DNA from: Oscillospiraceae bacterium
GTDB lineage: Bacteria > Bacillota > Clostridia > Oscillospirales > Oscillospiraceae
Length of the DNA stretch: 64,000 nucleotides
NCBI GenBank assembly: GCA_045628925.1
Contig: JAZQQF010000197.1
Location: forward strand, 758 to 64,757
Direction: 5' to 3'
Shown: positions 21,433-58,938 of the stretch, piece by piece
How positions within the stretch are numbered: the first letter of the stretch is position 1
Layout of the letters: each line of letters begins with the position of its first letter
The notes under the pieces: model-generated
Databases searched by the model: none
The model's input: the letters and a program-made list of their open reading frames with translations, nothing else
Told to the model about the DNA's origin: nothing
Position numbers and translations under genes: made by a program

Positions 21433-21530
21433 ACAGGTCCCGGGAAACGCGTGAGCGGATCCCGGGAAAAAACGCGGATACACAGCCGGGAAAACCGGCT
21501 GAACCGATATTCAAAAACGGAGGTACGAAC

Positions 21531-34249: not shown

Positions 34250-35053
34250 TCACACAAAACGGCTCATTGCCGCAAACAGATGCGCGACCTCGATCGGCTT
34301 TTCGATGTGGTCGTCCATGCCGGCCTCTAGCGATTTCTGCCGATCCTCCGCGAAGGCATTGGCGGAAAGGGCGATGATGGGGATGTGCTGATTGGGATAC
34401 ATGGCGCGGATCGCCTTCGTGGCATCGTAGCCGTTCATATAAGGCATCTGGATATCCATCAGGATAAAGTCCACGTAATTGGCGCCCATTTTCCGCATCA
34501 GGTCGACCGCGACCGTGCCGTCCTCCGCGGTCTCCACGATCAGACCGGCTTCATCCTGCAGGATATCCGTTGCGATCTCGCGGTTCAGCTCGTTATCCTC
34601 CACCAGCAGGACCCGCTTTCCCTTCAATTTGGCGGAAGGGTCGTTCTGCGAAGCATCCCGATCCGCTTCCTCCGCAGCCTCCTCCCGGACGGCCATGGGG
34701 AATACGACGGTGAATGTGGTGCCCTGACCCAGCTTGCTCTCGCATCGGATGGTGCCGCCCATGATATCCACGAACGCTTTCGTAACGGAAAGCCCCAGCC
34801 CGGTACCCTGAATGCCGCTGGTGGTGGTATTGACCTCGCGGGCAAATTCCTCAAACATATGCTGCTGGAATTCCTCACTCATGCCCATGCCGTTGTCCGA
34901 TACCGTGAACTGATAATACCGGGTGTCGCCCTCCTCACGCTCCAACTGGGTGGCGGTCAGCCGGACCTGCCCGCCGCTCTGGGTGTATTTGATCGCGTTG
35001 GTGCCGAGATTCAGCAGCACGCGGCTGAAGCGGGTCTTGTCTACCAAAATGTG
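34250..35053 (-). pseudogene. 5'-truncated hybrid sensor histidine kinase (HATPase_c + receiver domain only)
   Basis: N box LLNLGTNAIKYT, G1 DNGMGM, F box FEEFAR and G2 GTGLGLSV, then a REC domain (VLLVEDNELN, ILMDIQMPYMNG, IIALSANAF, EKP). No HisKA/H-box and no sensor region are present. The only in-frame ATG (35401) adds 115 aa of Arg/Pro/Ser-rich non-homologous sequence overlapping the neighbouring gene. Confidence 0.7.
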
Positions 35054-35312
35054 TTCATGGAACGCATCGACAGATCGTTCCGGTTCTTCTCTTTCATAGG
35101 CTGCTTCTCTTTCCGGCAGCGCCGTGTGCTGCCGCCGACCTCCGAGCCGTGCGAGGACGGCAGTTTCGTTAAAAGCATATAAACTAACAGAGTAATTATA
35201 CACCGGATTGCGGAAGCAGCCAGCGGTTTCTGCGGACTTCCTGACGTTGGCCGCCCCTTCACGGGGGAGGGCGGGAAAGCGGCGGGGATGCGCGGATGAG
35301 CGGGAGCGCCCG

Positions 35313-35365
35313 AAAAAACGCCAGGCCCCCGAGGATGGGGACCCTGCCGTAGGGGGGCGGCGTTT
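35313..35365 (-). terminator. intrinsic terminator of the 1349-aa gene
   Basis: On the minus strand, aaacgccgcccccc ... gggggcctggcgtt forms an imperfect stem followed by tttttt, immediately after the TGA at 35367-35369. Confidence 0.5.
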
Positions 35366-35366
35366 C

Positions 35367-38300
35367 TCAGACGCCGGCCTCACGCTGATTCCGGGAAGCA
35401 TGGTTCGGATGCGTATCCGCGTACGCGCCCGGGCCGACGCCGGCGGCCCGTTCTGCTTCCGTCCAATAATAGTTCTGCATATTCTCTTTTGTCTTGAGCG
35501 CCGTGCAGGTCACTTCCCGCTTCTCCTGCAGAAGATCCTTCAGGCCCGCGGCGCCCAGCCCCGCGATATGCGCGTTGAACTCATGGGTCTTCATGACCCG
35601 CACGCGCTTTTCCGCCCGGGCGTTTCTGCCGGTCCCGGTGTCCTCCTCTGCCATGCGCCCACTCGCAGTCCGCACAGTCTGCCGGTCCGGTTTTCCGGGA
35701 TCGGTCAGCTCCGACATCAGCTGCCGGTCGACTGCTTTCAGATTGGAATCCAGAGAATTTTTCAGCCGCCGATGCCCGTCGGCAAGGCCATCCAGATATG
35801 CCTTCTCGGCATACAGGTTTTTCAGGAAAAGCTCATAGCTCAGATTGGGCTGCCAGATCAGGTCGCTGATCGCCACGATCTTACGCGCCACGCAGAGCCG
35901 GTCGACCTGATCGCTGTCCAGACGCTGGCCCTTCTTCTGACCGATGTAGGCTCTGGCGGTTTCGGCGAGTTCAAAGAAATCCTCTTTCATGGAACGCTCC
36001 CCGCCGGCTTCCATATCATAGCGGTCGAAGCGCTTGAAGATGTCTTTCAGCTGGTCGCTCATCTGCCGGCGCATCGTACCGGCGGGCAGCATCCCGTCCG
36101 CGCGGCTCAGATCCCTGATCAGCTGAGAGGTCAGCCTGATGGCGTCCGTGTAAATGAGGAGCTGCTCGGTCTGAATCGGCAGGTTGGGGGCGTCTTTCAG
36201 CGCATAGCTGGCGTTCTGCGCCGCTTCGGCGGGCGCGGCAAGGGTTTTGCCCTCATAGGTTTTGATATCCTTGCGAATGTAGAAGTGCGGTTTCCCGTCC
36301 GTCCGGCGAAGGTTGGCGGCAAGGACGCGGAGCGCAGGCTCCGGGTCGGCGGGTTTGTTCCCGCTAAACACCATGATCTGGCCTTTTTTGACCAGCTCCG
36401 TGAAGGATTCGTATTTCTGCGCGGTTGTCTCGCCCTTGAGCTCGAGGGAATTGAGGATCTTCTCCTCCTCTGCCGTCAGCGGTTCCCGCTGCGAGCCCGC
36501 GTTCCGGGCCGAAATGAAATATCGGTTTTTGAGATCGGCCTTCCGGGCGTCCCGGTCCGGGTACAGGAAATGCGCCGCCAGCTCTTTGCCGGAATACCGG
36601 AAGACCGGGCTGCTTTTCGCATCCGGCTGCTCCAGCGGGACGCTGCCGCGCACTTCGCCCATGAGCTGCCGGCTCGTCAGACCGGCCTTGACGTATTCCG
36701 GGCCCATCGCTTCCAGATTGACCAGCGCGGCTCTGTTTTTCAGCTCCGCCGTGCGGAAGGGGAGGTCGGAGGGCGGCTCCGGCTGGGACTGCGCCTCTGC
36801 GGCGGCCGCTTCCCTGACCGCCTCATAGACCGCCTGAAATTTGCTCATGGTCTTCAGCCGCGTGACCTGACGGGAGCTGAGCGAGGCGGACTCGCCCCTG
36901 GCTTCCTGATACTGCTCCATGGCCCGGACAGCCGGCTGGAACGCTTTTTCCAGATCGGAAAAGTTCTTGCGGATGAACTCCGGGTCGTCGAATTTCTTGC
37001 TTAATTCCACCAGCGCCTCGCTGGCCTTCACGTATTCCGGGGTGCTGTTGACCCAGAAATGCTGGGTGGAAAGCAGGTCCGCCGTCAGCTCGTTCACTCT
37101 GCCCTTCAGATAGGGGTAAACGGAAGCGGCCCCGTAGAATTTCACCTGATTGGTCAGCGTCGCGGCGCCGCTGTTCGCCACCTCGACGGAGCTGAACGAG
37201 CCGTTCCGATAGACGTGGAGATAGGAAACGTCATGCTCGTCGGCAGTGGCGGGGCGGATGCGCTCGAACAGGGCGGCGCATCCGGTGCTTCCGGGGATGG
37301 CCCTTCCGTTATTGTCCAGGATCAGGCCCTTGCCGAAGGCTTCCTCGACCATCTTCTCGGCTTTCTGATATTTTTCCGCTGCCGCGGCCGTTTTGCCCTG
37401 CTGCGCCTGCTGGGACGCGGAAAGGGCGTTCCATTCATCAAACCGGTCGAGGGTCTTGAGCATCCCCTCCAGAAACGCCTGATACGGCGTCTGTTCCGGA
37501 TGCTCGCCGTATTTGCCGACCCAGCCGTACGGGCCGACACCGGCTTCCTTCTCCACTTCCTTCCAGTGCTGCTGCAGGATGTTGACGCGGGTGTCGAGCG
37601 CCTTGCAGGTGGTTTCCCGGTCTTCACGGAGCAGCTTTTTCAGATCGCCGGCGCGCAGCTCCGTGCCCAGACTGGTCGTATGCATGGTGAAGTCATTGGA
37701 AGCAATGATGTCCTGCCGCCGCTGATCCATGGCGTCCTGCAGGCTTTTCGGGCTGGTGTAGTCCGTCAGCACCCTGACCATGGCCAACCGCGCTTCGTTG
37801 GGCTCGATTTTGAACGCATCCGCCAGAGAATGCGCCCGGGCATGGATATCGGCAATGCCATCGAGAAAGATCTTCTCGGCGTACATATTCCGAAGATATT
37901 CCGCGTGCGTCAGATCGGGCCTGCGGAGCAGCCCTTCCATGACGACGATCCTGTGCGCCACACAGAGCCGGTCGACCTGCCGGTCATCCATGCTCTGACC
38001 CGCCTTGTCGGCAATATAGGACGCGGCAGCCAGCGCGGCATCGTGCAGAAGGTACTGAACCTCCGCCTCCGGAGCACCACCGGGCCCGGGGAGGCTCTCC
38101 GAAGCTTTGGTGAGTTCGTCGTGCATCCGCTTCCGCTTGTCGCTGGGGCCGAAAACCGTTCCGGCGCGCTGCAGATCCGCTTCCAGCGACTTCAGATCGG
38201 AGCGGAGCTCCTGCAGGATCAGCCGTTTTTCCGCAGCGTTGGCGGCTGCGTTTGAAGGTTCGACGAAGAAGCTCATCGTTTCGGCGCCGGCATAGGAAGG

Positions 38301-39416
38301 ACGCCGCGTGACGACCATGCTTTCAAAGGTCTTCCCGTCCCCGGAAAGCCGGAAGATCGGGTCACGGCCTCTGTTCGGATTGTGAACGATCTCGGCGAGG
38401 GCATTTTCCGGCGCTGCTTCCTGACCGTCTCTGCCCGGCACGCGGAGCTTTCCCACGTTGACGTCCGTCCAGAAACGGCGGTATTTTTCCGGCGTGCTGA
38501 TCCGCTCCGGATAAAGCGCATCCAGGATCTGCGTTTCATCCTCCGAAAGCTCGGGCTCCTTCAGACGGTAGACGAGCGGGTCGGCATTCCGCTGTTCGGC
38601 GGCCTGCAGATCGACCGGGGAAAAAGGCGGCCGCTGCGGATCGGGCTGGCGTTCCGAGGCGGTCTTCAGCGCATCATAAAGGACTTTGAAGCCGTTCATC
38701 GCTTCCCGCACACCGGCCTCGCGGGGGTCGAGCGCTTCGTCTTTGCCTGCCTGCTGCAGGAACTGCTCCATTTTCTGATATGCGGGCGTGAGGTCGTTCA
38801 CCATGTCCCGCAGATCGTAGCGATGGCCGAGCTCGCGGCCCCTTTTGTCGGCGGTATAAAACCGGAGCATCGAACCCAGATCCTGCATCGCCTGCGTAAA
38901 TCCATCGGGTTCGGGGCTGCCTTCCAGCCAGAAATGCCGGGCGTCGAGCAGGTCGTTCGTCAGCGAGAGGACCCTGCTTTTCACATAGGGATAAACGGCG
39001 GCGGCTTCCGCAAATTTGACCGTTCTGTCGTCCGTCGTGTGTCCGTCGGCCCCCAGCGAGTAAGACTGATACTGCCCGTTCTGATAGATATGGATATGGC
39101 TGTCTTCCTGCGAGATCCTGTCGTTATCCGAGAGGGCCTGATACAATGCGAAGCAATCCGCGCCGAGAGCAAGGTCGCTTTCCAGATCGGGCAGAATGAG
39201 GCCCTTCCGGAGCGCGTCCTCGATGAGCTTCTCAGCACTGTCAAATTCATCGTCCGAAATATGCAGATCCTGAACGGCAGGCTGACCGTTTTCGGCCCGG
39301 CGCTGACCGACCTGCGCTTTCCACGCGTCAAACTGCCCGATGCGGCCGAGCATATCCTCCAGATAGGCATAGTAGACCCGGTTTTCTTCGGTATTGGTGA
39401 ATCTGGGTGTCGGCAT
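35367..39416 (-). CDS. large orphan protein (1349 aa) built of two ~670-aa homologous modules
   Basis: Protein-like charged/helical composition. GGGAGGGG RBS upstream of the ATG at 39416, with its own promoter and terminator. The internal duplication is visible in the translation. No signal peptide, TM segment or known catalytic motif was recognised. Confidence 0.75.
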   Translation of the reverse strand: MPTPRFTNTEENRVYYAYLEDMLGRIGQFDAWKAQVGQRRAENGQPAVQDLHISDDEFDSAEKLIEDALRKGLILPDLESDLALGADCFALYQALSDNDRISQEDSHIHIYQNGQYQSYSLGADGHTTDDRTVKFAEAAAVYPYVKSRVLSLTNDLLDARHFWLEGSPEPDGFTQAMQDLGSMLRFYTADKRGRELGHRYDLRDMVNDLTPAYQKMEQFLQQAGKDEALDPREAGVREAMNGFKVLYDALKTASERQPDPQRPPFSPVDLQAAEQRNADPLVYRLKEPELSEDETQILDALYPERISTPEKYRRFWTDVNVGKLRVPGRDGQEAAPENALAEIVHNPNRGRDPIFRLSGDGKTFESMVVTRRPSYAGAETMSFFVEPSNAAANAAEKRLILQELRSDLKSLEADLQRAGTVFGPSDKRKRMHDELTKASESLPGPGGAPEAEVQYLLHDAALAAASYIADKAGQSMDDRQVDRLCVAHRIVVMEGLLRRPDLTHAEYLRNMYAEKIFLDGIADIHARAHSLADAFKIEPNEARLAMVRVLTDYTSPKSLQDAMDQRRQDIIASNDFTMHTTSLGTELRAGDLKKLLREDRETTCKALDTRVNILQQHWKEVEKEAGVGPYGWVGKYGEHPEQTPYQAFLEGMLKTLDRFDEWNALSASQQAQQGKTAAAAEKYQKAEKMVEEAFGKGLILDNNGRAIPGSTGCAALFERIRPATADEHDVSYLHVYRNGSFSSVEVANSGAATLTNQVKFYGAASVYPYLKGRVNELTADLLSTQHFWVNSTPEYVKASEALVELSKKFDDPEFIRKNFSDLEKAFQPAVRAMEQYQEARGESASLSSRQVTRLKTMSKFQAVYEAVREAAAAEAQSQPEPPSDLPFRTAELKNRAALVNLEAMGPEYVKAGLTSRQLMGEVRGSVPLEQPDAKSSPVFRYSGKELAAHFLYPDRDARKADLKNRYFISARNAGSQREPLTAEEEKILNSLELKGETTAQKYESFTELVKKGQIMVFSGNKPADPEPALRVLAANLRRTDGKPHFYIRKDIKTYEGKTLAAPAEAAQNASYALKDAPNLPIQTEQLLIYTDAIRLTSQLIRDLSRADGMLPAGTMRRQMSDQLKDIFKRFDRYDMEAGGERSMKEDFFELAETARAYIGQKKGQRLDSDQVDRLCVARKIVAISDLIWQPNLSYELFLKNLYAEKAYLDGLADGHRRLKNSLDSNLKAVDRQLMSELTDPGKPDRQTVRTASGRMAEEDTGTGRNARAEKRVRVMKTHEFNAHIAGLGAAGLKDLLQEKREVTCTALKTKENMQNYYWTEAERAAGVGPGAYADTHPNHASRNQREAGV

Positions 39417-39490
39417 TTTCTGTCCCCTCCCGTGAAGAAACGCTGCTGAAATGGCGCGAAACGAGATGCTGTCTATTTACACATATTATA

Positions 39491-39518
39491 TTATATCGCA
39501 TGATCTGTAAAAAACAAG
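39491..39518 (-). promoter_or_regulatory. promoter candidate for the 1349-aa gene (TTGTTT-16-TATAAT on the minus strand)
   Basis: The reverse complement reads ttgttt-16 nt-tataat, within an AT-rich stretch of the divergent intergenic region. Confidence 0.4.
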
Positions 39519-39675: not shown

Positions 39676-42528
39676 ATGAAAAAGAAGATGCTATCCATGC
39701 TGCTGCTTTGCATATTGCTGCTGTCCTGCGTTCCCGGGTATCCGCTCAAAGCAGATGCCGCAGCATCCTATAACCGGGAAGCGGCGATCGCCTACGCACA
39801 GGAACATTGGAACGATGGAAAGGGTCAGTGCGCGGCATTTGTCAGCCGCTGTATGATCGCCGGCGGCCTGAGCATGGACGTTGAGTCTTACGCCGATGGA
39901 GCTGCCTGCGCCATTTTGGGGGCCATAGGGAAACCGACCGCGTTCAGCACAGACTACGACCCTTATCAGGCCGTCTGCACCAAAGCCGTGCTGTCCGACG
40001 GCTATATGAAAAAGGCGGACAATGAAAACCTTCTGAAAGAGGGGGACGTTGTCTTTTATTACTGTGAAACCGATCACGTATCCCCGCATATCATGCTTTT
40101 CGGCGGGTGGAATAATAAAGGCTATGCAACTTTTTACTGCCATAATTCCGCCAACTGCCCGGCGAACCAGCAGGGTTACAACGTATATATGTTCACGGCC
40201 TCCTCTTCCGTTATGGTCAATAATGGCCATAAATCCAGCTGCCAATGCACGGCATATATCATCCATTTTGATGACTGCGACCATTCTCCCAGTCCGGACG
40301 GTTTCGGCTTCTGCACCCGCTGCGGCGCCTATGACCCGCAGAAGGACGTGAGGAGCAGCGGCGTCACGACGTATCCGAACGCCAGATACTACACCCTGAA
40401 CTGTGCCTGCCGGGTGCGCAAGGGACCCTATGAGGAGTGCGATTCGCCCGACGGCAGCAAGACCGCCAAAGGCACCCGATTCACGGTCGTCGGCGAACTG
40501 ACGAACGGGCGGGGCCACCTCTGGTACATCACTTCGGACGGGCGGTATATCTACGGAGAAAGGGCCGATTATGCAGGGGAGGACAGCGCCGTGCGCTTCG
40601 GCGAGGTGTCCGGCTCCGCGACCGATACCAATGCGGTCCTGAAGACGACCGTATACAAACAGCGCGGCGCAGATGCACAGACCTACGGCGTGGCGATCAT
40701 CGGCTTCCCGAAGAACGATATTTTCGGGAAACTGTTTGTCCGCACCAAGGAATTCCCCGACACTTACGTTAGTAACAGCAGCACCAGCTATACCTTAACG
40801 CTGGATCTGACGGAGGAAGCCGGATGGATCCTGCCTGTTGACCATACGTTTTACGCGAACCTGTTCGTGCAGGTCGACGGGGCCCGCTATACCGCGAAAA
40901 CGGTGAAGTTCGAGACCTCTGCCGGCGGGCTGTTCGTCAGCGATCCCATTCTGGATGCGGAGACCGTGAAGCAGATCGAGGCGGCGGGCCCGGAGCTTAC
41001 TCCCGCTGTCGCCGCCGAAAGCTCCGGGGCCATCACGTGGAACGACGCCTCCGTTACGAACGTTACGAACACCTCGGCGCTGGTGAAATATACCCTGACA
41101 CCGGACAAAAGCAGGATCCGCCGCATCGGGATGCAGTACTGCACCGACGGCAGCAGCTTTGCAGACGTACCCGGCTGCGAATGGGCGGGCAGCACGCTGA
41201 CCAGCTTCTGCAGCGTGGCCTTTGACGGCAGCGAGGGGCCGCGTCTGGCGCCCGGCACCACGTATTACTGCCGCTTCTACATCATCCGGACGGACGGCGG
41301 GACGGAATACAGCCCGGTCATCACCTTCACCACCGCCGCCGGAAGCTCCGAGGCCATCACGTGGAACGAGCCTTCGGTGACAGATCTGAGCGAGACCACG
41401 GCGCTGGTGAAATACACGCTGACGCCGAACAAGAGCCTGATCGCCCGCATCGGGATGCAGTACTGCACCGACGGCAGCAGTTTCGCAAACGTACCCGGCT
41501 GCGAGTGGGCGGGCAGCACGCTGACCAGCTTCTGCAGCGTGGCCTTTGACGGCAGCGAGGGCCCGTGTCTGACGCCCGGCACGAAATATTACTGCCGCTT
41601 CTACATCATCCGGACGGACGGCGCGGCGGAATACAGCCCGGTCATCACCTTCACCACCGGCGGCACCGCCATTCGGGAATACACCGTTTCGCTGAACGTC
41701 AACCGGGATGACGGCGCGATCACCGAAAGCACGCGCATCCGGGTCAGCACCGGCGGCACCTTCGGCTCGCTGCCCGCGCCCTTCTCTGCCTGCGCCGCGT
41801 TCCTCGGGTGGTATACCGAGCCGGAGGGCGGGCGGCTGATCGAGTCGAATACCCCGGTCACGGACGATTGTCCCGCCGAGCTTTATGCGCATTGGCAGCC
41901 GCTTTCCTATACGGTATTCTTTGACCCCGCGGGCGGCAGCGCGGCATACGGCAGCAAAATCGTGACCAACGATCTGCCCTTCGGCGAGCTGCCCGTCCCC
42001 GTGCGGAGCGGGTATGAGTTCCTCGGCTGGTTTGCGGATGACATGACTGCCTTCGCCGTGCAGCCGGAATGGGTCGTCAGCGCATGGCAGAACTTCACGC
42101 TGACCGCCCGCTGGGCAAAGCTGGAGGAGGAAGCCCCGGAGAAAGTGAACACGATCCAGCTCTGGATCGACAGACCCTTCCTCAGCGTCAACGGAGAAGT
42201 GACGGCCATCGACAGCGAAGGAACGGTCCCCGTGATCCGCAGCGACCGGACGCTGCTGCCGATCCGCTGCATCATCGAAGCCATGGGCGGCACCGTCGGC
42301 TGGGACGGCGCGAACCGCATGGTAACGCTCAGCCTCGGGGACAGATCGCTGTATATGATCATCGGCAGCACCAGCGTGCTGGATCAGAGCGGAACCTATC
42401 ACACGCTGGACAGCGCCCCGGTCATCATCCATGACCGCACCATGCTCCCCGTCCGATTCGTGTCGGAATTTTTCGGCGCGGCGGTGGATTGGGACGGCGA
42501 GACCAGAATGGTCACGATCACGTACTGA
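39676..42528 (+). CDS. secreted mosaic surface protein: putative amidase-like domain + 2 Fn3-like repeats + Flg_new (Listeria-Bacteroides) repeats + copper-amine-oxidase-N-like domain
   Basis: Signal peptide MKKKMLSMLLLCILLLSCVPGYPLKADA. N-terminus YNREAAIAYAQEHWND..GQCAAFVSRCM resembles the putative-amidase family. Two 108-aa repeats follow, then FLGWYTEPEGG / FLGWFAD Flg_new motifs. The C-terminus reads LLPIRCIIEAMGG.V.WDG and MLPVRFVSEFFGA.VDWDG. Confidence 0.85.
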   Translation: MKKKMLSMLLLCILLLSCVPGYPLKADAAASYNREAAIAYAQEHWNDGKGQCAAFVSRCMIAGGLSMDVESYADGAACAILGAIGKPTAFSTDYDPYQAVCTKAVLSDGYMKKADNENLLKEGDVVFYYCETDHVSPHIMLFGGWNNKGYATFYCHNSANCPANQQGYNVYMFTASSSVMVNNGHKSSCQCTAYIIHFDDCDHSPSPDGFGFCTRCGAYDPQKDVRSSGVTTYPNARYYTLNCACRVRKGPYEECDSPDGSKTAKGTRFTVVGELTNGRGHLWYITSDGRYIYGERADYAGEDSAVRFGEVSGSATDTNAVLKTTVYKQRGADAQTYGVAIIGFPKNDIFGKLFVRTKEFPDTYVSNSSTSYTLTLDLTEEAGWILPVDHTFYANLFVQVDGARYTAKTVKFETSAGGLFVSDPILDAETVKQIEAAGPELTPAVAAESSGAITWNDASVTNVTNTSALVKYTLTPDKSRIRRIGMQYCTDGSSFADVPGCEWAGSTLTSFCSVAFDGSEGPRLAPGTTYYCRFYIIRTDGGTEYSPVITFTTAAGSSEAITWNEPSVTDLSETTALVKYTLTPNKSLIARIGMQYCTDGSSFANVPGCEWAGSTLTSFCSVAFDGSEGPCLTPGTKYYCRFYIIRTDGAAEYSPVITFTTGGTAIREYTVSLNVNRDDGAITESTRIRVSTGGTFGSLPAPFSACAAFLGWYTEPEGGRLIESNTPVTDDCPAELYAHWQPLSYTVFFDPAGGSAAYGSKIVTNDLPFGELPVPVRSGYEFLGWFADDMTAFAVQPEWVVSAWQNFTLTARWAKLEEEAPEKVNTIQLWIDRPFLSVNGEVTAIDSEGTVPVIRSDRTLLPIRCIIEAMGGTVGWDGANRMVTLSLGDRSLYMIIGSTSVLDQSGTYHTLDSAPVIIHDRTMLPVRFVSEFFGAAVDWDGETRMVTITY
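41029..41676 (+). repeat. 2 x 324-bp in-frame tandem duplication inside the surface-protein gene
   Basis: gccatcacgtggaacga.. recurs at 41029 and 41353. The encoded 108-aa units (AITWN..ALVKYTLTP.KS.I.RIGMQYCTDGSSFA.VPGCEWAGSTLTSFCSVAFDGSEGP..) are ~85-90% identical by eye. Confidence 0.85.
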
Positions 42529-42591: not shown

Positions 42592-44850
42592 ATGTTTGAT
42601 CGGCTGAAAAACAAAGGCCGCGGCAAAGCTCCGGCCCGGACGGAGCAGGAGACGATGCTGCGGGAGAAACCCGAAAACACGGCGGAAGCAGCTGCGGGAG
42701 CGGCGTTTGAATCGTTTCCGGCGTATCTGAAAACGGAATATCAGGAAGCGGAAAGCATGGTCGGGCGCAGCGAATACGGGCTGGAGCTGGATTATCTGTA
42801 TATCGGCAGCGACGGACACGCGGAGTTCGCGTCCTATGACTGCGACATGACGCCGCCCTCCACGTTTGAAGAATCGTTTGATCTGACGTTCGATCCGGAG
42901 GAAGCGGAAAAGCTCTTCCGTGCGCTGGAGATCGGGGAAGACGTGATCGCGCGCGGCGGGGTGGAACGGTTCGTCTGCGTGTTCCGCGCGCTGATGGGCT
43001 TCGTCGTGCCGCAGAGGGACAGCCTTCAGCTCAGCGATGCGTTTCCCGCGCTGCTCAAAAAGGCCGGTATCCGAACTGCTGACGACACCGAGCGCAGGCG
43101 TCTCTGGCGGGGCAGCCCGTTCAACTATGAGCGGATCGACGCGGATCGGGGATCGCCGCTTTGGAGGCTGGTGGAAAGGCTCCCCGCAGAGGTCGGTTTT
43201 TCCGATCCGAATGAGATCCGCGCGTATTATGCCAATGAAAACAGACGATACTCCCTGGATATCCGGCAGAGCGAGCGGCGCGGCGTTTACGTGCTGGAGC
43301 CGGAGACGCTCGAATGGGTGTATGATCCGGGGGAGACCTCGATCGTTCACTGGGATAAACCGCTGTGGCCGCCATGCTTTGCGCTGCCGCGTGAGCTGCC
43401 CGGAGATACCAGACTGGATGCGTTCCTGCGGTATGCGGAAATGCTGTTCCGGCCGGAAAACGCGCGGGAATGGGACACGGACGGGCAGATCGCGGGCGAG
43501 CGCAGAACGATGGAAAGCATCATGCCTGCCTTTCTGAAAGCCGGGTATGAGCTGACGATCGAGCTGCTGAAAGGGGAAGCCCGTTATCTCCTCGCGCCCG
43601 ATCTGAGCGAAATGGGGAAGTATGCGGAGCAGATGAGCCTGCAGTCCTGCCTGCAGTATCTGCTGTTCGCCTGCCGCGGCGCCGCGAAGTCCGGCGGGTT
43701 CCGGAACGCGTGGGAGGACGGCACGCTGCTGGCCGTCGTTCGCAGGGCGGCAAGCCTGCACCGGACGCAGCCGGCGATCCGTTCGGAAGAGAGCCGCCGG
43801 AAAAAAGACCGGTATGAGGGCTGCCTTCTGGGCGGCGCGGCGGGCGATGCGCTGGGCTACCCGATCGAATTTCTGAAAGAAGCGGAGATCGGGAGCCGGT
43901 ACGGAGAAACCGGCATCCGGGAGCTGCGGGAAGCCGGCAGCCCTGCCGTTATTTCCGATGACACGCAGATGACGCTGTTTGCGGCGAACGCGATCCTGTA
44001 CCACAAAACCACGGGCGCCTATCCGGAGAAATGCCTGCAGAGGGCGTATCTGGAATGGCTGGATACCCAGAACGGGAAGCAGACTTCGGAGCCGCGGATG
44101 TGGATCTCGGAGATCCCGCAGCTTCAGGTACGCAGAGCGCCGGGGCATACCTGCATTGCCGCCTGTCGCCGCATGGCGGCGAAGCCGCGGATCATGGAGG
44201 CGGAAAACGACAGCAAGGGCAACGGGACCGTGATGCGGGCGGCGCCGTTTGGCCTGATGCGCCGTCTGGATGAGCCCGGCAGCGGGGACGATGCGATGGC
44301 CGCTGTGCGGGGACTCGCGGAGTTCGACGCCGTGATGACGCACGGGCATCCGGAGGCCCACGAATCGTCCGCGTTTCTGGCGGGCCTGATCTTCAACCTC
44401 GTTCAGCGGGGTGCGCGATACGATACCCTGCAGGATGCGATACGGGACACGCTCACGGAAAGAGACGCACAGATCGAAACGGCGGTCGCCCTTGCGGAGG
44501 ACCGTTACGTTTCGGATATCGACGGGATCCATCAGCTGGGGGAGGGGTGGACGGCCGGGGAAGCCCTCGCCATCGCCGTGTTCTGCGCCGTGCGGTATCA
44601 GGACGACTTCGGAGCCGCCCTGCGCGCTGCCGTGAATCACGGCGGGGACAGCGATTCCACCGGCGCCATCTGCGGCAATCTTCTGGGCGCGCGTCTCGGT
44701 GCGCAGGCGGTGCGGAACGCCTTCCCGATGGCGGAGCTGGAGCTGGCCGATACGATCCGCGAGATCGCAGACGATCTGTTCCTGGCGGCGGAGGACGGCG
44801 TCCCGGTCCGGGGAGCGGATCCGGCATGGGATCAACGATATCGGAGATGA
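42592..44850 (+). CDS. ADP-ribosylglycohydrolase (ARH/DraG family) with ~400-aa N-terminal region of unknown function
   Basis: The C-terminal ~350 aa (from ~43800) carry ARH motifs GCLLGGAAGDALGYPIEF, SDDTQMT, GNGTVMRAAP, THGHP and NHGGDSDSTGAICGNLLGA. The N-terminal 400 aa have no motif I recognise. AGGAGG RBS. Confidence 0.85.
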   Translation: MFDRLKNKGRGKAPARTEQETMLREKPENTAEAAAGAAFESFPAYLKTEYQEAESMVGRSEYGLELDYLYIGSDGHAEFASYDCDMTPPSTFEESFDLTFDPEEAEKLFRALEIGEDVIARGGVERFVCVFRALMGFVVPQRDSLQLSDAFPALLKKAGIRTADDTERRRLWRGSPFNYERIDADRGSPLWRLVERLPAEVGFSDPNEIRAYYANENRRYSLDIRQSERRGVYVLEPETLEWVYDPGETSIVHWDKPLWPPCFALPRELPGDTRLDAFLRYAEMLFRPENAREWDTDGQIAGERRTMESIMPAFLKAGYELTIELLKGEARYLLAPDLSEMGKYAEQMSLQSCLQYLLFACRGAAKSGGFRNAWEDGTLLAVVRRAASLHRTQPAIRSEESRRKKDRYEGCLLGGAAGDALGYPIEFLKEAEIGSRYGETGIRELREAGSPAVISDDTQMTLFAANAILYHKTTGAYPEKCLQRAYLEWLDTQNGKQTSEPRMWISEIPQLQVRRAPGHTCIAACRRMAAKPRIMEAENDSKGNGTVMRAAPFGLMRRLDEPGSGDDAMAAVRGLAEFDAVMTHGHPEAHESSAFLAGLIFNLVQRGARYDTLQDAIRDTLTERDAQIETAVALAEDRYVSDIDGIHQLGEGWTAGEALAIAVFCAVRYQDDFGAALRAAVNHGGDSDSTGAICGNLLGARLGAQAVRNAFPMAELELADTIREIADDLFLAAEDGVPVRGADPAWDQRYRR

Positions 44851-44935: not shown

Positions 44936-45736
44936 TCAGCGATCAGACGCACCGTCGGCGGTGACGTCCTCTCCCGGAACCAGATACCGGGACAGGACGC
45001 CGCGGACGGCGTCGAATACGGTCAGATCCTTCGGATCCAAATTGTCCTGCGTGATGCGGATCAGCCGGTCTCCGCGCCGGAACTTGCAGGTCTTCGGCGA
45101 TCCGCCCATCATCATCGCGGCGATCCCGCGCCTGCCCTCAAAGCGGTCCAGACCATATTGGTCGATGACCGCGTAGGCCGCCGCCTCCGCATCGGAGGGG
45201 ACGAACCACGTCAGGCGGTTTTCCGGACTCCGGGAGCTTGCCCTGCAGTATTCATCCAGCTGGAGCCTCCCGTCGGGATATCGGCTCAGCACCAGCTCGT
45301 AGGTGGAGCTCATCCCCACGGCCTCGTTCGCGGGCGTCGTGCCGAAATAGCAGTCCACCAGCAGCTCATTGCCTTCTCCGGGCCTGGGCATACCGGAATT
45401 GCGGGCCGGCTCGTCCTGTGCCGGAGCGGGGTTGAGGTCGGGAAAAGCCTTCCGGGCCTGTTCACCGTCCATGAATAATCCGGGGATGGGGCTGAACATT
45501 GTGGCGGCGCTCAGACCGATATTCTGCGGCTGGGACGGCAGCGGCTTCGCGGTCAGATCCCGAAGCGGTGCGCCGCAGTTCATACAGAATTTCTGATCCG
45601 GCTGAACGGGTTCCCCGCAGCCGGGGCAGAATTTCTGCTTTGGCAGGACAGATTCCCCACAGCTGGTGCAGAATTTCTGATTCGGCAGAATGGGTTCCCC
45701 GCAGCGGGGGCAAACGGATACTGCGTTTTCGTTCAT
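44936..45736 (-). CDS. triple zinc-ribbon protein with unknown C-terminal domain
   Basis: N-terminus CPRCGEPILPNQKFCTSCGESVLPKQKFCPGCGEPVQPDQKFCMNCG (three consecutive ribbons), a Pro-rich linker and a ~150-aa globular C-terminal domain. Confidence 0.7.
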   Translation of the reverse strand: MNENAVSVCPRCGEPILPNQKFCTSCGESVLPKQKFCPGCGEPVQPDQKFCMNCGAPLRDLTAKPLPSQPQNIGLSAATMFSPIPGLFMDGEQARKAFPDLNPAPAQDEPARNSGMPRPGEGNELLVDCYFGTTPANEAVGMSSTYELVLSRYPDGRLQLDEYCRASSRSPENRLTWFVPSDAEAAAYAVIDQYGLDRFEGRRGIAAMMMGGSPKTCKFRRGDRLIRITQDNLDPKDLTVFDAVRGVLSRYLVPGEDVTADGASDR

Positions 45737-45783: not shown

Positions 45784-46461
45784 TTATTTCCCGAAGGCGC
45801 CGGTCGCACCTTCCAGACCCAGCGAACGGTCGCCGCTGTCACCGGCAGCGTCGGACGGTTCCACCGTGATGATCTTGTCCACATAGGTATAGTCGCTGTA
45901 GCCCATCCGGGCCAGCGGCCTGATCTTCAGCATATCCAGCTTCCCGTCCGCCCCGATGACCTCGTCCCTGATGTGCACGCCCACGACCCTGCCGATGATG
46001 ATGTCCGCGGAGCCGACGCTGCTGTCGCCGGGCAGGTGGATGGTCTGCACGTATTTGCATTCCAGCTGCACCGGCGATTCGGCCACCCGATAGGGCTTGA
46101 CCAGCACGGATCCGGCCTTTGTCAGCCCCGCGGCCTCAAATTCGTCCACGTCCGGCGGGAAGGGCGCGGCGGTGAGGTTCATCTTGTCCATCAGCTCATA
46201 GGTCACCATGTTGTGCACGAACTCGCCCGTGCGCTCGATGTTGTTGGTGGTGTCCTTCCGCTTGCTCTCCGGCGTCATGTTGATGGACAGCAGGACATAC
46301 GGCGGGTCGAAGGTCAGGTTGGTGAACTGACTGTAGGGGGCAAGGTTCGCCTTCCCGTTTTCGTCCAGCGTGGAGATCCAGCCGATGGGGCGGGGGACGG
46401 CGATCGACTTGAAGGGCGGTCTGGGCAGACCGTGGTCATTCTTTTCCGTTTCGTAGAACAC
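45784..46461 (-). CDS. flavin reductase-like (FMN-binding split-barrel) protein
   Basis: 225 aa. The pattern PRPIGWIST.D..G..NLAPYS.F and the hot spot P.V.ES...LECK are typical of flavin reductase domain proteins. Confidence 0.85.
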   Translation of the reverse strand: MFYETEKNDHGLPRPPFKSIAVPRPIGWISTLDENGKANLAPYSQFTNLTFDPPYVLLSINMTPESKRKDTTNNIERTGEFVHNMVTYELMDKMNLTAAPFPPDVDEFEAAGLTKAGSVLVKPYRVAESPVQLECKYVQTIHLPGDSSVGSADIIIGRVVGVHIRDEVIGADGKLDMLKIRPLARMGYSDYTYVDKIITVEPSDAAGDSGDRSLGLEGATGAFGK

Positions 46462-46636
46462 GAGGCGCCTCCTGTTCGCTTCGGAGCCGGTGCGGCTCCT
46501 GTTTTTCGGCAGTATATCATAAATCGCGCCGGAATGGGAGAAAATCGCGGATAAATGCCGGATTTTTTGAAGCTGCCTGTTCTTTCCGCCGGCCCGGTCG
46601 GACGTTTCGACAGAATTCGATTTTTAGCGCGTAATG

Positions 46637-46665
46637 TTGACAAATTCGAGATGAGCTTGTATAAT
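46637..46665 (+). promoter_or_regulatory. consensus sigma-A promoter (TTGACA-17-TATAAT) at the head of the lipid cluster
   Basis: ttgaca at 46637-46642, exactly 17 nt of spacer, tataat at 46660-46665. It sits in an AT-rich stretch ~140 nt upstream of the ATG at 46805. Confidence 0.6.
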
Positions 46666-46804
46666 TACAGTTAAATAGTGCAATAAAGTGCGAAGCGCCG
46701 GAGAATATACTTTCCGGAGTGCGGCTTTCGGGCCGCAGCGGATAAAGGAAACCGGGAAACGCAGAGAAACCGATAGAAATTCGTTAGATGGGATACAGGC
46801 AGAT

Positions 46805-48754
46805 ATGAAGATCGAGACCCTGGGACCGTATAAAACACTGAATTCGTTTGTGTCGGCCAAGATAAACCGGTTCAATTCCGCGGAGCACAGTTTCCGCGCC
46901 ATGTTTGAACTGATGTTTTCCGAGAAGGAAAACGTGATCTATGAAAAGAGCAGCGGGTATCAGATCGAGTATACGAAATACGGCGAAGCCTGCGATCAGA
47001 CAAGCGAATGCGCGGCGCATCTTCGATTCCTGCTGAAACGTCTCCCGGATGATTCCATCGTCGGATTGTATATGAAAAATGACATCAGCTGGATCATTGC
47101 ATTCTGGGCGATCCTGAAAAGCGGGCACAGGCCGCTTCTGCTGAATACAAGACTGGGCGACGATATCATCAATCTGGTCATGCGCAATGCCGGCGCATCC
47201 GCAGTGATCACGGACGGAAAGACGTTCCCCGAGTTTGAGACCATTCCGTATGCGGATATCCGGCTGTCCGATCGCTGCGAACAGGCAGCGGAGCAGTTCG
47301 GTTCCGAGGTGCTTGTGATGTCCTCCGGCACGACAGCGCTCCCGAAGATCTGCGCATATTCCGCCGAGGAATTCTATTACCAGATCAACGACAGTTTTCA
47401 TATTATCTGTGAATGCAGACAGATCAAGAAACACTATGACGGTCAGCTGAAACTGCTGACATTTTTGCCGTTTTATCATGTTTTCGGGCTGATCGCCGTA
47501 TATATCTGGTTCGCGTTTTTTTCCAGAACGTTTGTCCATCTGAGCGATCTCGCACCGCAGACGATCATCAACACCATCCGGCGGCACAAGGTGACACATA
47601 TTTTCGCCGTTCCGATGTTCTGGAATGAAGTATATAAACAATCCGTAAAGACGATCAAAGGCCGCGGGGAGGAGACGTATCACCGGTTTTTGAAGGGCAT
47701 GGACATCGCGGAAAAGCTCCAGCTGGTACCCGTGCTGGGTTCCGCGTTTATCCGTCTGGCATTCCGGGAGGTCCGGGAGAACCTGTTCGGGGACAGCATC
47801 TGTTTTCTGATCACCGGCGGAAGCGAGATCCAGAGCGAGGTCCTTTCCTTTTTCAACCTGATCGGCTACCATCTTGCAAACGGATACGGCATGACGGAGA
47901 TCGGCATCACATCCGTTGAACTCAGCACGAAAAGAAATCTGCGGAACGCGGGCTATGTGGGAAAACCGTTCTCCTCCATCGAGTATCGGATCTCACCGGA
48001 CGGCTGCCTTCAGGTGAGCGGCAGGTCGACCGCCAGATATATCATGGAGGGCGAGAGAAAGAAAGCGCGTGACGAATGGTTTGACACGGGCGATATTGCG
48101 GAATGTGTCAACGGGCATTATCGGATCCTTGGCCGCAGAGATGACGTTGTGATATCCGAAAGCGGAGAAAACCTGAATCCGTTCCTGATCGAGCCGCTGC
48201 TTGCGGACGATCCGAATTATCAGATCTGCCTCATCGGGCACACGGAAAACAGACAGATCGTGCCGACGCTGCTTGTGTTTGCGGGCCGTCACGTGAGTGC
48301 GGAGAAGTACAGAAACGTCCGCCGGAATATCGAAAAGAAACTGCAGGACAACAGATTATCGACCCGGATCTCGAATATCGTATTTGTGCAGGAACCGCTG
48401 ATATCGCCGGATGACATCAAGATCAACCGTGCCCGGCTGAGAAAGCAGTATGATGAAAACGCGCTCAGCCTCCTGAATCCCGAACGGATCACAGACCGGG
48501 GCGCGGAGGACGATCCGGTCTATAACTATGTCAGAGAGCTGTTTGCCGCTGCGTTCGGCAAACCGGCAGGCGAATTCGGACCGGACACGGATTTCTTCCT
48601 GGATGAAGGCGGCAGCAGTCTGGACTATTTCGCGCTCATCTCCAAGATCCAGGAGGATCATGATATCCGATTCCCCGCATCGCAGGAGAAGACGATCTCT
48701 ACCATAGCGGAACTGAGCGCGTTTATTGAGGACGAACACAATCATGTGGGTTAA
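46805..48754 (+). CDS. adenylate-forming enzyme fused to a PCP-type carrier domain (A-T didomain, NRPS-like/fatty acyl-AMP ligase-like)
   Basis: AMP-binding motifs LVMSSGTTALPK, GYGMTE and WFDTGDIA..GRRDDVVISESGENLNP. The C-terminal carrier motif is DFFLDEGGSSLDYFALI. The start at 46805 was chosen over the GTG at 46688, which would lie almost at the predicted TSS. Confidence 0.85.
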   Translation: MKIETLGPYKTLNSFVSAKINRFNSAEHSFRAMFELMFSEKENVIYEKSSGYQIEYTKYGEACDQTSECAAHLRFLLKRLPDDSIVGLYMKNDISWIIAFWAILKSGHRPLLLNTRLGDDIINLVMRNAGASAVITDGKTFPEFETIPYADIRLSDRCEQAAEQFGSEVLVMSSGTTALPKICAYSAEEFYYQINDSFHIICECRQIKKHYDGQLKLLTFLPFYHVFGLIAVYIWFAFFSRTFVHLSDLAPQTIINTIRRHKVTHIFAVPMFWNEVYKQSVKTIKGRGEETYHRFLKGMDIAEKLQLVPVLGSAFIRLAFREVRENLFGDSICFLITGGSEIQSEVLSFFNLIGYHLANGYGMTEIGITSVELSTKRNLRNAGYVGKPFSSIEYRISPDGCLQVSGRSTARYIMEGERKKARDEWFDTGDIAECVNGHYRILGRRDDVVISESGENLNPFLIEPLLADDPNYQICLIGHTENRQIVPTLLVFAGRHVSAEKYRNVRRNIEKKLQDNRLSTRISNIVFVQEPLISPDDIKINRARLRKQYDENALSLLNPERITDRGAEDDPVYNYVRELFAAAFGKPAGEFGPDTDFFLDEGGSSLDYFALISKIQEDHDIRFPASQEKTISTIAELSAFIEDEHNHVG

Positions 48755-49379
48755 ATTTGTCAACGCCTTTACAAAGATCACCGGCTGGCCGGTCCAGTTC
48801 CTCTGCTTTCGCACGAAGGTGTATTACGAAGATCCGGCGATCCAGAGGAGAAAGCTGTCGGGGCCCGCGATCATCGTATCAAATCATACTTCGGTCTTTG
48901 ACTACGCAGTCTATCTGTTCGTATTCCTTTTTCGGACCCTCCGCTTTCAGATGGCGGAGGTCCTGTTCGAGAAAAAACCGCTGGGGCTGCTGCTGAAGGG
49001 ACTCGGCGGGATCCGGGTGAACCGATACTCACATGATCTGGGGTTCGTTACAAAATCGGAGGAGATCCTTCGCGGCGGCGGCGTGGTGGGCATTTTTCCG
49101 GAAGGCCGTCTGCCTAAGCCGGAGGAAGCGCGGCCGCTGCCGTTTTCTCCCAGCGTCGCGTATCTGGCGCTGTCCACAAAAGCGCCGATCATCCCCGTCT
49201 ATACGAACGGATCCTATTTCAACCGAAAAAGAGCGCGCGTGCTGATCGGCTGCCCGATGCACGCTTCACAGTTTCTGGACCCGGATATGACGGAAAAAGA
49301 GAACCTTGCGTATGTTACGGAGCGGATCAGAGACCGCATCATCGAACTGGGGAAAAAACTGGATGAAAAAGTCAAATAA
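48744..49379 (+). CDS. PlsC/LPLAT-family acyltransferase 1
   Basis: HX4D motif NHTSVFD, plus GGIRVNR and FPEGRLP blocks. The ATG at 48744 overlaps the upstream stop by 11 nt. Confidence 0.8.
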   Translation: MWVKFVNAFTKITGWPVQFLCFRTKVYYEDPAIQRRKLSGPAIIVSNHTSVFDYAVYLFVFLFRTLRFQMAEVLFEKKPLGLLLKGLGGIRVNRYSHDLGFVTKSEEILRGGGVVGIFPEGRLPKPEEARPLPFSPSVAYLALSTKAPIIPVYTNGSYFNRKRARVLIGCPMHASQFLDPDMTEKENLAYVTERIRDRIIELGKKLDEKVK

Positions 49380-50010
49380 AAGCCGGCTGTTTTCCATGAA
49401 ATATCTCTTTCACGATTTTGTGAAGCTGACAGCCATGCTCCCGGGCCTGATCGCCTTCCGGCCGAGGATCCTGTTTGAAAATGAGGCGGCGAGAAAACCG
49501 ATCCGGAATGCGGCGCTCCTGATCGGGAATCATGCAGGTTATTTTGACCCGGTATATATGCAGTTCGCCGTCTGGTACAGACGGCATCATTTCATCTGCA
49601 CGAAGGAGTTCTTTGAAGGGAAGAAGAGATTCTTCTTCAAGAACTTTCTCTGTATTCCCATTGACCGGGACAATTTCGGCATTGATTCCTTCCGGGAGAT
49701 CGTCTCGCACCTGAAGCAGGGCGAGCTTGTGAGTATGTTTCCGGAGGGGAAGATCGAGAACGGGCTGAAATCCTTCAAATCCGGGATGATCCTGATGGCC
49801 TTGCAGAGCGGGGCGCCGATCGTGCCCATGTATATCAGGAGCCAGAAAAAATGGACGGAACGCCTGACCATGGCGATCGGCGAACCGATCGATGTCTCGA
49901 ACGGCAGCGGCGCAAGACCGAGTATGTCTCAGATCAAAGAAGCGGCGGAGAGGCTGCACCAGAAAGAGATGCAGCTGCGGGAACTATGTGAAAGGGGTAA
50001 GAAAGGATGA
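49363..50010 (+). CDS. PlsC/LPLAT-family acyltransferase 2
   Basis: HX4D motif NHAGYFD, plus CIPIDRD and FPEGKI blocks. The ATG at 49363 overlaps the upstream gene by 17 nt. Confidence 0.8.
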   Translation: MKKSNKSRLFSMKYLFHDFVKLTAMLPGLIAFRPRILFENEAARKPIRNAALLIGNHAGYFDPVYMQFAVWYRRHHFICTKEFFEGKKRFFFKNFLCIPIDRDNFGIDSFREIVSHLKQGELVSMFPEGKIENGLKSFKSGMILMALQSGAPIVPMYIRSQKKWTERLTMAIGEPIDVSNGSGARPSMSQIKEAAERLHQKEMQLRELCERGKKG

Positions 50011-51521: not shown

Positions 51522-51769
51522 ACAGAATTGAAATATTCGAACGGCTGAAGGACATCCTTCTGCTTTCGGATGATCAGAATCAGGCGGCGATCGCGGCCTG
51601 CAGCGAAGACAGCGGGCTGATCACGGATCTGGGCCTGTCCTCTGTCGGAATGCTGTATGTCGTCATTGCCGCGGAAGAGACATTCGACATCCGCTTTGAA
51701 AATGTCGGCATGGCAGATTTTGAAACGGTGAAAGACGTGATCGATTACATAGAGGCAAGACTGAAATGA
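51512..51769 (+). CDS. acyl carrier protein (stand-alone, 85 aa)
   Basis: ACP-type attachment motif DLGLSSVGMLYVV and helix III EETFDIRF. It overlaps the ligase gene by 10 nt. Confidence 0.8.
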   Translation: MQLNRIEIFERLKDILLLSDDQNQAAIAACSEDSGLITDLGLSSVGMLYVVIAAEETFDIRFENVGMADFETVKDVIDYIEARLK

Positions 51770-53732: not shown

Positions 53733-53745
53733 TGGAGGCGAGTTT

Positions 53746-54681: not shown

Positions 54682-54684
54682 GAA

Positions 54685-56028: not shown

Positions 56029-56036
56029 GGCACCCG

Positions 56037-57686: not shown

Positions 57687-57697
57687 AGGTAGAAAAA

Positions 57698-58645: not shown

Positions 58646-58671
58646 ACCGGTTCAGAAAGGAGGCGCAGTCT

Positions 58672-58917
58672 ATGGAACCGAATCTTCAAAATGAGTATAA
58701 ACCGTTGAGTCCATGGGCATATTGGGGGCTTTCGATCCTTTACACGATCCCGATCGTCGGGTTTATTTTCATGATCGTTTTTTCGATCAGCAAAGCGAAC
58801 ATCAATCGCAGAAACTTTACACGATCTTATTGGTGCTGGTATATTCTAGTCGGAATCGCGGTGCTCATCCTGGCAGTGACCGGCGTTCTGGGAGACCTCA
58901 TATACTATATGTTCTAA
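58672..58917 (+). CDS. small two-TM membrane protein
   Basis: 81 aa. AAAGGAGG RBS. Two hydrophobic helices flank a basic loop (KANINRRNFTR). Confidence 0.55.
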   Translation: MEPNLQNEYKPLSPWAYWGLSILYTIPIVGFIFMIVFSISKANINRRNFTRSYWCWYILVGIAVLILAVTGVLGDLIYYMF

Positions 58918-58938
58918 TGTGTTGTGGGAGGAGACATT

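Follow-up and report, generated by a model that had tools for sequence, protein, structure and literature searches.

P0001, a 1349-residue protein of an uncultured gut bacterium, is built from four diverged copies of a single unit, and the helical bundle predicted in each copy also turns up behind the protease domain of calpain-like proteins in this genome and in a relative's. In our preferred reading, which we put tentatively at a probability of roughly 45%, P0001 is soluble, binds several partners at once rather than acting as an enzyme, and belongs to a network that is restricted to its lineage and includes calpain-like proteases.

The gene lies on the minus strand at 35367..39416 of the window, the 64,000-nucleotide stretch of DNA that we analyzed. 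As originally predicted, it is an open reading frame with an ATG start; it encodes 1349 residues plus a stop codon (151 kDa; pI 5.7). It had also been credited with its own promoter, strong ribosome-binding site and terminator, and on the minus strand we find a candidate for each: a sigma-70-like match, TTTACA-17-TAATAT (39483..39511; 9/12), a Shine-Dalgarno-like GGGAGGGG read from the sequence (39424..39431, ending 7 nt before the ATG), and a terminator-like hairpin of 8 pairs followed by a T run (35313..35344, ~20 nt past the stop), all of them consensus matches only. Among the upstream regions of nine bundle or calpain genes, the only shared motif was a -10-like GATATAAT, present in five. 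Compared over its whole length with a homologue at locus L005 in another genome, P0001 gives pN 0.24 and pS 0.63 (dN 0.29, dS 1.39), and the resulting dN/dS of ~0.2 shows that the gene is real, constrained and under purifying selection. Contigs of four sequencing runs from three studies (X1, X2, X3 and X5) cover part of it, with indels near its 3′ end that total 9 nt. In three runs, about 39.5–45 kb was without contig cover, an observation from which we draw no interpretation. No RNA run with the gene was found among the 24 runs listed; 18 DNA runs, from seven studies, have it.

The two halves of P0001 are collinear. BLASTP of residues 1–640 against 641–1349 returned two alignments, one pairing residues 286–639 with positions 337–699 of the C-terminal half (30% identity, 382 columns, E 1.2e-37) and the other pairing residues 11–359 with positions 1–303 (28% identity, 352 columns, E 1.8e-35), and by this measure the half-to-half similarity is far above chance. 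These alignments bear out the original prediction of two diverged modules. The peptide blocks that had been quoted for it were all found in the translation, and W.E.E..AGVGP closes each module as described, with AGVGP at residues 625–629 (37530..37544) and 1325–1329 (35430..35444), both on the minus strand. We found no DNA-level repeat between the halves, so the duplication is old. The count of two needs amending, however, as each module is itself an internal duplication. The A half of the module profile matches the B half with an hhalign probability of 95.7% (E 9.5e-9, 255 columns), so each ~650-residue module consists of two diverged units of ~220 residues, A and B, giving four units in P0001 rather than two. 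Module 1 (residues 1–640; 37497..39416) is the faster-evolving copy and contains unit A1 (residues 48–263; 38628..39275), an alpha/beta part plus four-helix bundle, and unit B1 (residues 287–510; 37887..38558), the most diverged of the four, with 42% identity to the L005 homologue. Module 2 (residues 641–1349; 35370..37496) is nearer to the single-module relatives P0004 and P0005, and contains units A2 (residues 678–880; 36777..37385) and B2 (residues 975–1200; 35817..36494; pLDDT 83 and pTM 0.67 when modelled alone). Between them is a helical insert of ~94 residues (881–974; 36495..36776) that is common to P0004 and P0005 and absent from module 1; all of these features are on the minus strand. 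P0001 was thus built from a ~220-residue unit that duplicated twice in succession, with the resulting order A1-B1-A2-B2.

The P0001 sequence family is undescribed and extremely rare. No family in Pfam, PHROGs or PADLOC matches the protein, and NCBIfam gave only a GrpE noise match (17.7 bits against a cut-off of 231); across Pfam-A, NCBIfam, PHROGs and PADLOC, no profile match reached its curated cut-off or E ≤ 0.01. Sequence and profile searches of the PDB yielded no match, only coiled-coil or designed-bundle noise, and the ESM Atlas gave no usable match. An exhaustive search of 1.84 billion representatives recovered two distant single-module relatives, while a word-index search recovered two double-module relatives and no shorter ones. 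The L005 homologue, 61% identical to P0001, was found in a second contig scan, with P0003 as query. The metagenome proteins P0004 (1115 aa) and P0005 (791 aa) share the module of A unit, insert, B unit and tail (E 1.6e-23 and 5.6e-22 against module 2), but each has a single module, a composition rich in lysine and asparagine, and no more than 21–25% identity; P0004 also has an N-terminal extension of ~350 residues. A search of 400 further genomes from the same taxonomic family did not find it. A module-profile search of genome, metagenome and viral contigs returned nothing, using a single pattern that would miss P0003, and neither an accession nor a locus tag of P0003 appears in the literature searched. 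The description of P0001 as an orphan that matches no known family therefore holds for the whole protein, but not for its bundle domain, which recurs elsewhere.

Each unit is predicted to fold as a small alpha/beta part followed by a four-helix bundle. In the AF2 models, built on 6 and 10 sequences, both halves show the same order of elements: a helix, short strands, a helix, three strands and four long helices. Fold searches returned generic four-helix bundles only, with scores no better than those of matches to designed bundles. Among the closest known systems are proteins of the talin rod, vinculin and alpha-catenin type, which are rods of serial four- or five-helix bundles; for a rod of this kind (talin, vinculin or spectrin-type helical bundles) we looked for a fold match clearly above the helical-bundle background. 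For a lipid-binding or membrane-localization bundle we looked for an above-background fold match together with conserved basic/hydrophobic tip residues. The bundles of this second kind that we compared were SidC P4C, the N-terminal bundles of large glucosylating toxins and MARTX RID.

The highest 19-residue Kyte-Doolittle mean in P0001 is 1.12, and thus the protein has no transmembrane-like segment; its N-terminus, judged by hydropathy and by eye, is polar and carries no signal peptide. Together with the lack of an enzyme family match, this agrees with the original reading, which had recognized no signal peptide, transmembrane segment or catalytic motif. The same features count against P0001 leaving the cell, by a route without a classical signal peptide, to act as an effector (exported or injected) or in association with the surface. 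P0001 also lacks an LXG or WXG100 match in Pfam, WXG100 (PF06013) was not found in G000, the genome that encodes P0001 (81% complete; control genomes matched), secretion genes were absent beside every bundle gene examined, and the fold matches did not rise above those to designed bundles. We consider either role unlikely.

The alpha/beta part, ~100 residues per unit, is hardly covered by the fold-search rows, and a K-G-x-I/L-x-V/L strand has an invariant G in 10 of 10 units. Both observations would suit an enzyme or ligand-binding protein with its active site in the alpha/beta subdomain. In a six-row module alignment, most invariant columns are hydrophobic; those that are polar comprise two R, one K, one D and two T. 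No constellation of conserved Cys, His, Ser, Asp or Glu runs across the units, and this, with the absence of any Pfam or NCBIfam match, makes such an active site quite improbable. P0001 probably functions by binding, not catalysis.

Profile comparison places the predicted bundle in further large proteins that lack a Pfam match, both in G000 and in a relative's genome. We searched with a profile built from the units alone, for which reversed-sequence controls gave E-values of 0.06–0.41, and counted as members those proteins whose four-helix bundle matched the profile and showed the pattern L..DL / S..Y / A..Y / L-s-x-R-Q-x-x-R-L. The family so defined comprises the units of P0001–P0005, four of them in P0001, as well as a 729-aa ORF of genome G401, P0008, proteins on contigs C130 and C31 of G000, and the C-termini of calpain-like proteins. 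P0008 matches the unit profile at E 8e-8 per genome (hhalign 86.6%), the 729-aa ORF matches it twice, and the C130 and C31 proteins match at 89% (E 2e-6) and 84% (E 7e-6), respectively.

On the same kind of evidence, calpain-like cysteine proteases have a predicted bundle immediately behind their catalytic domain. In G401, the calpain-like protein matches the unit profile with its C-terminus at 91% (E 1e-6), and the calpain-like protein of contig C43 matches with a HMMER i-E of 2.3e-6 among 45 proteins, into a P-x-L-x-Y..L..AEK stretch. Taken alone, the bundle matches of the calpain-like proteins of C206 (hhalign E 0.08) and of C124 with G783 (E 0.04) are weak; for these two of the three G000 proteins, support for the bundle comes from a transitive match, in which the G401 C-terminus aligns with C124 with G783 (78%, E 1.9e-5). 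For both G401 and G000, the helical region after the protease domain of the calpain-like proteins aligns with the unit bundle and part of the tail. A scan for the CysPc catalytic core (PF00648) detected it in each calpain-like protein (C43, C206, C124, G401 and G783), with C206, C124 and C43 the only contigs of G000 to match, and did not detect it in P0001; unlike the calpain-like peptidases, P0001 has no protease domain. Both groups are rare and patchily distributed. In the accessible text of Rawlings (2015; PMC4631099), a survey of bacterial calpain-like peptidases (Peptidase_C2, PF00648), 19 of 681 Firmicutes genomes are counted as having them, and no such C-terminal domain is mentioned.

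Given that calpain-like proteins share the bundle, P0001 may not be a general scaffold but may serve the bundle-tagged enzymes as substrate, inhibitor or regulator, either with each unit engaging one protease or with cleavage at the conserved module ends. Two other bundle proteins are encoded close to calpain-like genes: the P0008 gene is divergent from that of C43 across a gap of 299 bp, and the 729-aa ORF is 2.2 kb from the sole calpain-like gene of G401. Calpain-like genes are present in both genomes with double-module proteins (three and one), compared to 2 of 250 other genomes of the family. The presence of four units and of a conserved W.E.E..AGVGP at each module end would also fit a protease regulator. 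Yet the P0001 gene itself adjoins no calpain-like gene and is unlinked to any protease gene, and the co-occurrence comes from a very small number of genomes and is in part inherent, since proteases and bundle are fused. We found no bundle match in the two calpain-like genes of the 250 other genomes, so calpain-like proteins do not generally carry the bundle. The neighbors of other bundle genes are housekeeping and metabolic, with no recurring partner except calpain. Complex prediction that paired unit B2 with the 728-aa calpain-like protein of C43 returned no answer (score 0.00), which is evidence neither way.

Calpastatin consists of four repeated calpain-inhibitory domains and is intrinsically disordered. 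P0001 likewise has four repeated units and occurs alongside calpain-type proteases, but this is an analogy only. The two proteins share no sequence similarity, Pfam Calpain_inhib does not match P0001, and the units of P0001 are predicted to be folded (pLDDT 83) rather than disordered. Collectively, we regard a dedicated protease regulator working by calpastatin logic, or by cleavage, as rather unlikely.

Downstream of the P0001 gene is an ORF with HATPase_c and Response_reg matches and no HisKA match; upstream and divergent is an Amidase_6/fn3/Flg_new/Cu_amine_oxidN1 protein, beyond which lies an ADP_ribosyl_GH protein of 752 aa. Proximity to this ADP-ribosylglycohydrolase had raised the idea of a conflict system. 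The surroundings of the L005 homologue show no conserved association: it sits between the IleRS and RecQ genes, and 0 of its 11 neighboring ORFs match any ORF of the window. The ADP-ribosylglycohydrolase gene was found in none of five same-genus genomes. No PADLOC model for a known anti-phage defence system matched. As the neighbors are not conserved, the link to the ADP-ribosylglycohydrolase is unsupported, and the conflict-system idea fails by the refuting condition originally set for it.

The sporadic distribution of the family, the lower GC3 of the L005 homologue (0.56 vs 0.70–0.79 in its neighbors) and the absence of any DNA match to about 34.2–45.9 kb of the window in the five same-genus genomes would fit P0001 as the cargo or a structural component of a mobile element (phage, plasmid or another), or as part of a defence system that includes the adjacent kinase-like and ADP-ribosylglycohydrolase genes. 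However, we found neither an integrase nor a tRNA or flanking repeat that would mark an island border, tblastn gave no match among 50,697 phage and 72,556 plasmid records, and viral contigs held no relative with the patterns used. With PHROGs and PADLOC also silent and the neighbors in L005 entirely different, we judge mobile or defence cargo to be very improbable.

These data are consistent with our preferred model, in which P0001 would be a soluble 151-kDa protein without a recognizable enzyme domain, made up of units A1-B1-A2-B2. The bundle may be a protein-binding or docking domain; if so, the four-unit protein could serve as a multivalent intracellular adaptor or scaffold, and it would belong to a lineage-restricted, bundle-tagged set that includes calpain-like proteases. 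A more specific proposal, which we think doubtful, is that the bundle is the docking tag of a private proteolytic network, in which large bundle proteins are recruited to, regulated by or regulate calpain-like proteases. The four-unit P0001 would then be the most multivalent bundle protein, and the network would be a bacterial counterpart of calpain-calpastatin logic, from an unrelated folded domain. If its function is plainly structural, P0001 would still represent a new sequence family, of modest importance. In either case, it is a clear nested duplication, in which one unit became two and then four and one copy evolves faster than the other. G000 has three calpain-like proteases alongside an expanded complement of large proteins, and the domain that the two groups have in common, not described before, would offer a concrete handle for the docking question.

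P0001 is encoded by a single reading frame of 1349 codons with an ATG start (35367-39416, minus strand), and has a mass of 151 kDa and a pI of 5.7. The original prediction gave the gene its own promoter, ribosome-binding site and terminator. In agreement with this, consensus matching places on the same strand a candidate sigma-70-like promoter, TTTACA-17-TAATAT (39511-39483), GGGAGGGG 7 nt before the ATG, as read from the sequence, and a candidate terminator, a hairpin then a T run, directly after the stop codon (35344-35313). The adjoining ORF at 34250-35401 (minus strand) carries HATPase_c and receiver domains, with HisKA not matched; as its first ATG lies inside the P0001 coding region, ahead of the candidate terminator, its true start must be later and its N-terminal part short. 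The N-terminus of P0001 is polar and the protein has no hydrophobic stretch (19-residue hydropathy maximum, 1.12); export would have to use an unrecognised route, which is possible at lower odds. Between P0001 and its 61%-identical homologue P0003, encoded at locus L005, pN is 0.24 and pS 0.63, and dN is 0.29 with a dS of 1.39 that is near saturation. pN is below pS in all parts of the protein, the fastest being the repeat unit B1 (42% identity). Contigs from 4 sequencing runs in 3 studies cover P0001 partially with few differences, and their small indels toward its 3' end add up to 9 nt, which agrees with the tail of P0002, a 91%-identical double-module relative, differing by three residues. 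P0001 is thus a real gene under constraint.

P0001 had been described as two diverged, collinear modules, each ending in ..W.E.E..AGVGP. All blocks quoted in support are present, AGVGP occurs at residues 625 and 1325, and BLASTP of residues 1-640 against 641-1349 aligns the halves collinearly in two segments, one of 382 columns at 30% identity (E = 1.2e-37) and one of 352 columns at 28% (E = 1.8e-35). No repeat was found between the halves at the DNA level, so the duplication is old. When the first and second parts of a 6-row module alignment were compared profile to profile by hhalign, they matched each other with 95.7% probability (E = 9.5e-9, 255 columns); no significant match between them emerged from single-sequence BLASTP (E = 0.15-2). 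An AlphaFold2 model of module 2 from 6 sequences (pLDDT 73.8, pTM 0.45) shows one order of elements twice, namely helix, short strands, helix, three strands and four long helices, and unit B2 modelled alone from 10 sequences (pLDDT 83, pTM 0.67) has the same layout. Given the profile match and the repeated element order, the architecture is A1-B1-A2-B2, four units each comprising an alpha/beta part of ~100 aa and a four-helix bundle of ~115 aa. Each B unit is succeeded by a helical tail terminating in W.E.E..AGVGP, and module 2 alone contains a helical insert of 94 aa. When 8 module sequences are placed in a maximum-likelihood tree, midpoint-rooted for drawing only, the three module-1 and three module-2 copies fall in separate, fully supported clades with identical internal order, which points to one module duplication that would have preceded the divergence of the double-module proteins. 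The stem of module 1 measures 0.94 against 0.30 for that of module 2, a threefold difference.

Consistent with its designation as an orphan, P0001 matched 0 families in Pfam-A, PADLOC and PHROGs, and only noise in NCBIfam (GrpE, 17.7 bits against a cut-off of 231). The PDB, searched by sequence and by profile, gave coiled-coil or designed-bundle noise, the ESM Atlas gave no usable match, and the structure search suggested originally, run by Foldseek, was empty for PDB and BFVD at E <= 0.001. An exhaustive phmmer search of 1,835,955,588 representatives with module 1 (E <= 0.001) returned 3 proteins: P0001 itself, P0004 (1115 aa, E = 3.4e-10) and P0005 (791 aa, E = 5.2e-5). The latter two have one module each, best matched by module 2 (E = 1.6e-23 and 5.6e-22). 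Word-index searching found P0002 and P0003 only, and no shorter relatives. The module profile matched 0/400 other genomes of the family, among them 0/5 of the genus, and the unit profile 0/400 other genomes of the order; the window's own genome, G000, is a MAG (81% complete, 2.37 Mb, 211 contigs). In the libraries searched, nothing described matches the sequence family or its unit; the fold elements of the unit are common. Neither the accession nor the locus tag of P0003 was found in the literature searched. The L005 record (JAGHUH010000009.1) is titled Candidatus Cacconaster stercorequi, with 'Clostridiales bacterium' as the protein's source name. Candidatus Cacconaster is put in Bacteroidales by NCBI taxonomy and PMC8957277; in contrast, LepA of P0003's genome (G401) is 74% identical to that of G000, whose genes have Shine-Dalgarno sites and belong to Firmicute-type families.

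Profiles of the units alone reached further proteins. In G401, a 729-aa ORF (L009:55-2244, minus strand) contains two units, which the module profile picked up at E = 1.4e-6 and 1.5e-5 per genome, and its halves match each other by BLASTP (E = 1e-8); about ten consecutive PQQA repeats link the units, and the calpain-like protein of a further genome, G783 (L041:5721-9704, minus strand), terminates in a similar (P)AQQA run. In G000, the 1232-aa P0008 has one unit (C43:3497-7195, plus strand; E = 8e-8 per genome, hhalign 86.6%), and ORFs on contigs C130 (L044:1-1737, minus strand; hhalign 89%, E = 2e-6) and C31 (L045:5544-7841, minus strand; 84%, E = 7e-6) have one bundle copy each. These three proteins are large and lack a Pfam match and a signal; searches of 60 relatives and of G401 did not find P0008. 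The bundle also matched the C-terminal region of the G401 calpain-like protein (hhalign 91%, E = 1e-6) and the C43 calpain-like protein (L016:1012-3198, minus strand; hhalign E = 1.7e-3, HMMER i-E 2.3e-6 among 45 proteins). Against reversed-sequence controls at E = 0.06-0.41, the calpain-like proteins of C206 (L019:8356-11103, minus strand; hhalign E = 0.08 alone) and C124 (L020:8251-12120, minus strand; E = 0.04 with its G783 orthologue) are weak cases, linked transitively by the match of the G401 C-terminus to C124 and G783 (78%, E = 1.9e-5, 166 columns).

Two bundle genes are close to calpain-like genes. P0008 is divergent from the 728-aa C43 calpain-like gene (PF00648, E = 1.2e-10), 299 bp away, and the 729-aa ORF lies 2.2 kb from G401's sole calpain-like gene; the remaining bundle genes occur singly amid housekeeping and metabolic genes. 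A4, a bundle profile that includes the calpain bundles, matched G000 at 10 places, distributed over 7 ORFs, matches to its own building sequences being by construction; it matched 0/250 other family genomes and 2/80 relatives of G401. PF00648 is present in 2/250 other family genomes, whose calpain-like genes gave no bundle match, and once in G401; G000 has three such genes in its 2.4-Mb genome. By eye, the Cys, His and Asn of the expected motifs are kept in 5/5 calpain-like proteins examined.

The original prediction also suggested, as a possibility, that P0001 belongs with a nearby ADP-ribosylglycohydrolase gene or to a conflict system, an association that its own check of conserved neighbours does not support: at L005 the homologue is flanked by isoleucyl-tRNA-synthetase-like and RecQ-like genes, 0/11 neighbouring ORFs match any window ORF, and the ADP-ribosylglycohydrolase protein occurs in 0/5 same-genus genomes. 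Window DNA from 31000 to 46600 matches these five genomes only at ~33.1-34.1 kb and ~45.9-46.5 kb, on different contigs, which places P0001 within a species-specific stretch. A mobile or defence origin is possible, at lower odds; the stretch lacks an integrase, a tRNA and flanking repeats, and no phage or plasmid relatives of P0001 were found. The ADP-ribosylglycohydrolase domain of the 752-aa protein (42592-44850, plus strand) spans residues 410-707 (E = 6e-62), and the N-terminal region of ~400 aa has no Pfam match. The amidase-like surface protein (39676-42528, plus strand; Amidase_6, fn3, Flg_new, Cu_amine_oxidN1) matches same-genus genomes via a common C-terminal domain only, and its gene holds two tandem 300-nt copies with 87% identity (41010-41633). 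Elsewhere in the window, the gene of a double zinc-ribbon protein (44936-45736, minus strand) includes three overlapping 56-nt copies at 42-nt spacing (45573-45712), with a second, similar zinc-ribbon protein at 1445-2272, and a 593-aa protein with RHS repeats (21339-23120, plus strand; E = 1e-14) sits amid housekeeping genes. GC is about 0.62 up to 46 kb and about 0.54 beyond it, and the low-GC part (about 46000-64000) holds an acyl/lipid cluster: AMP-binding plus carrier domain, acyltransferase, a second AMP-binding gene, LRAT plus phosphopantetheinyl transferase, three alpha/beta hydrolases, DegV, MFS and a second FakA-like gene.

P0001 is a constrained, soluble-looking, four-unit protein whose bundle is common to calpain-like proteases and other large orphans of G000. 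No catalytic constellation is conserved across the units; a hidden enzymatic subdomain is possible, at lower odds. Being common to an enzyme and to non-enzymatic partners, with the genes linked, usually marks a domain as one for docking. We tentatively propose, at a probability of roughly 45%, that the bundle binds protein and that P0001 would act as a multivalent adaptor within the bundle-bearing set, because a conserved catalytic constellation is lacking, because valency rises when a binding unit is repeated, and because an enzyme and non-enzymatic partners have the domain in common, their genes being linked at two loci. A sharper version, in which P0001 would serve the calpain-like proteases as substrate, inhibitor or regulator, seems unlikely. 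What makes P0001 noteworthy is its nested duplication, the lineage-specific expansion of its bundle and its connection with the bacterial calpains, which are rare.
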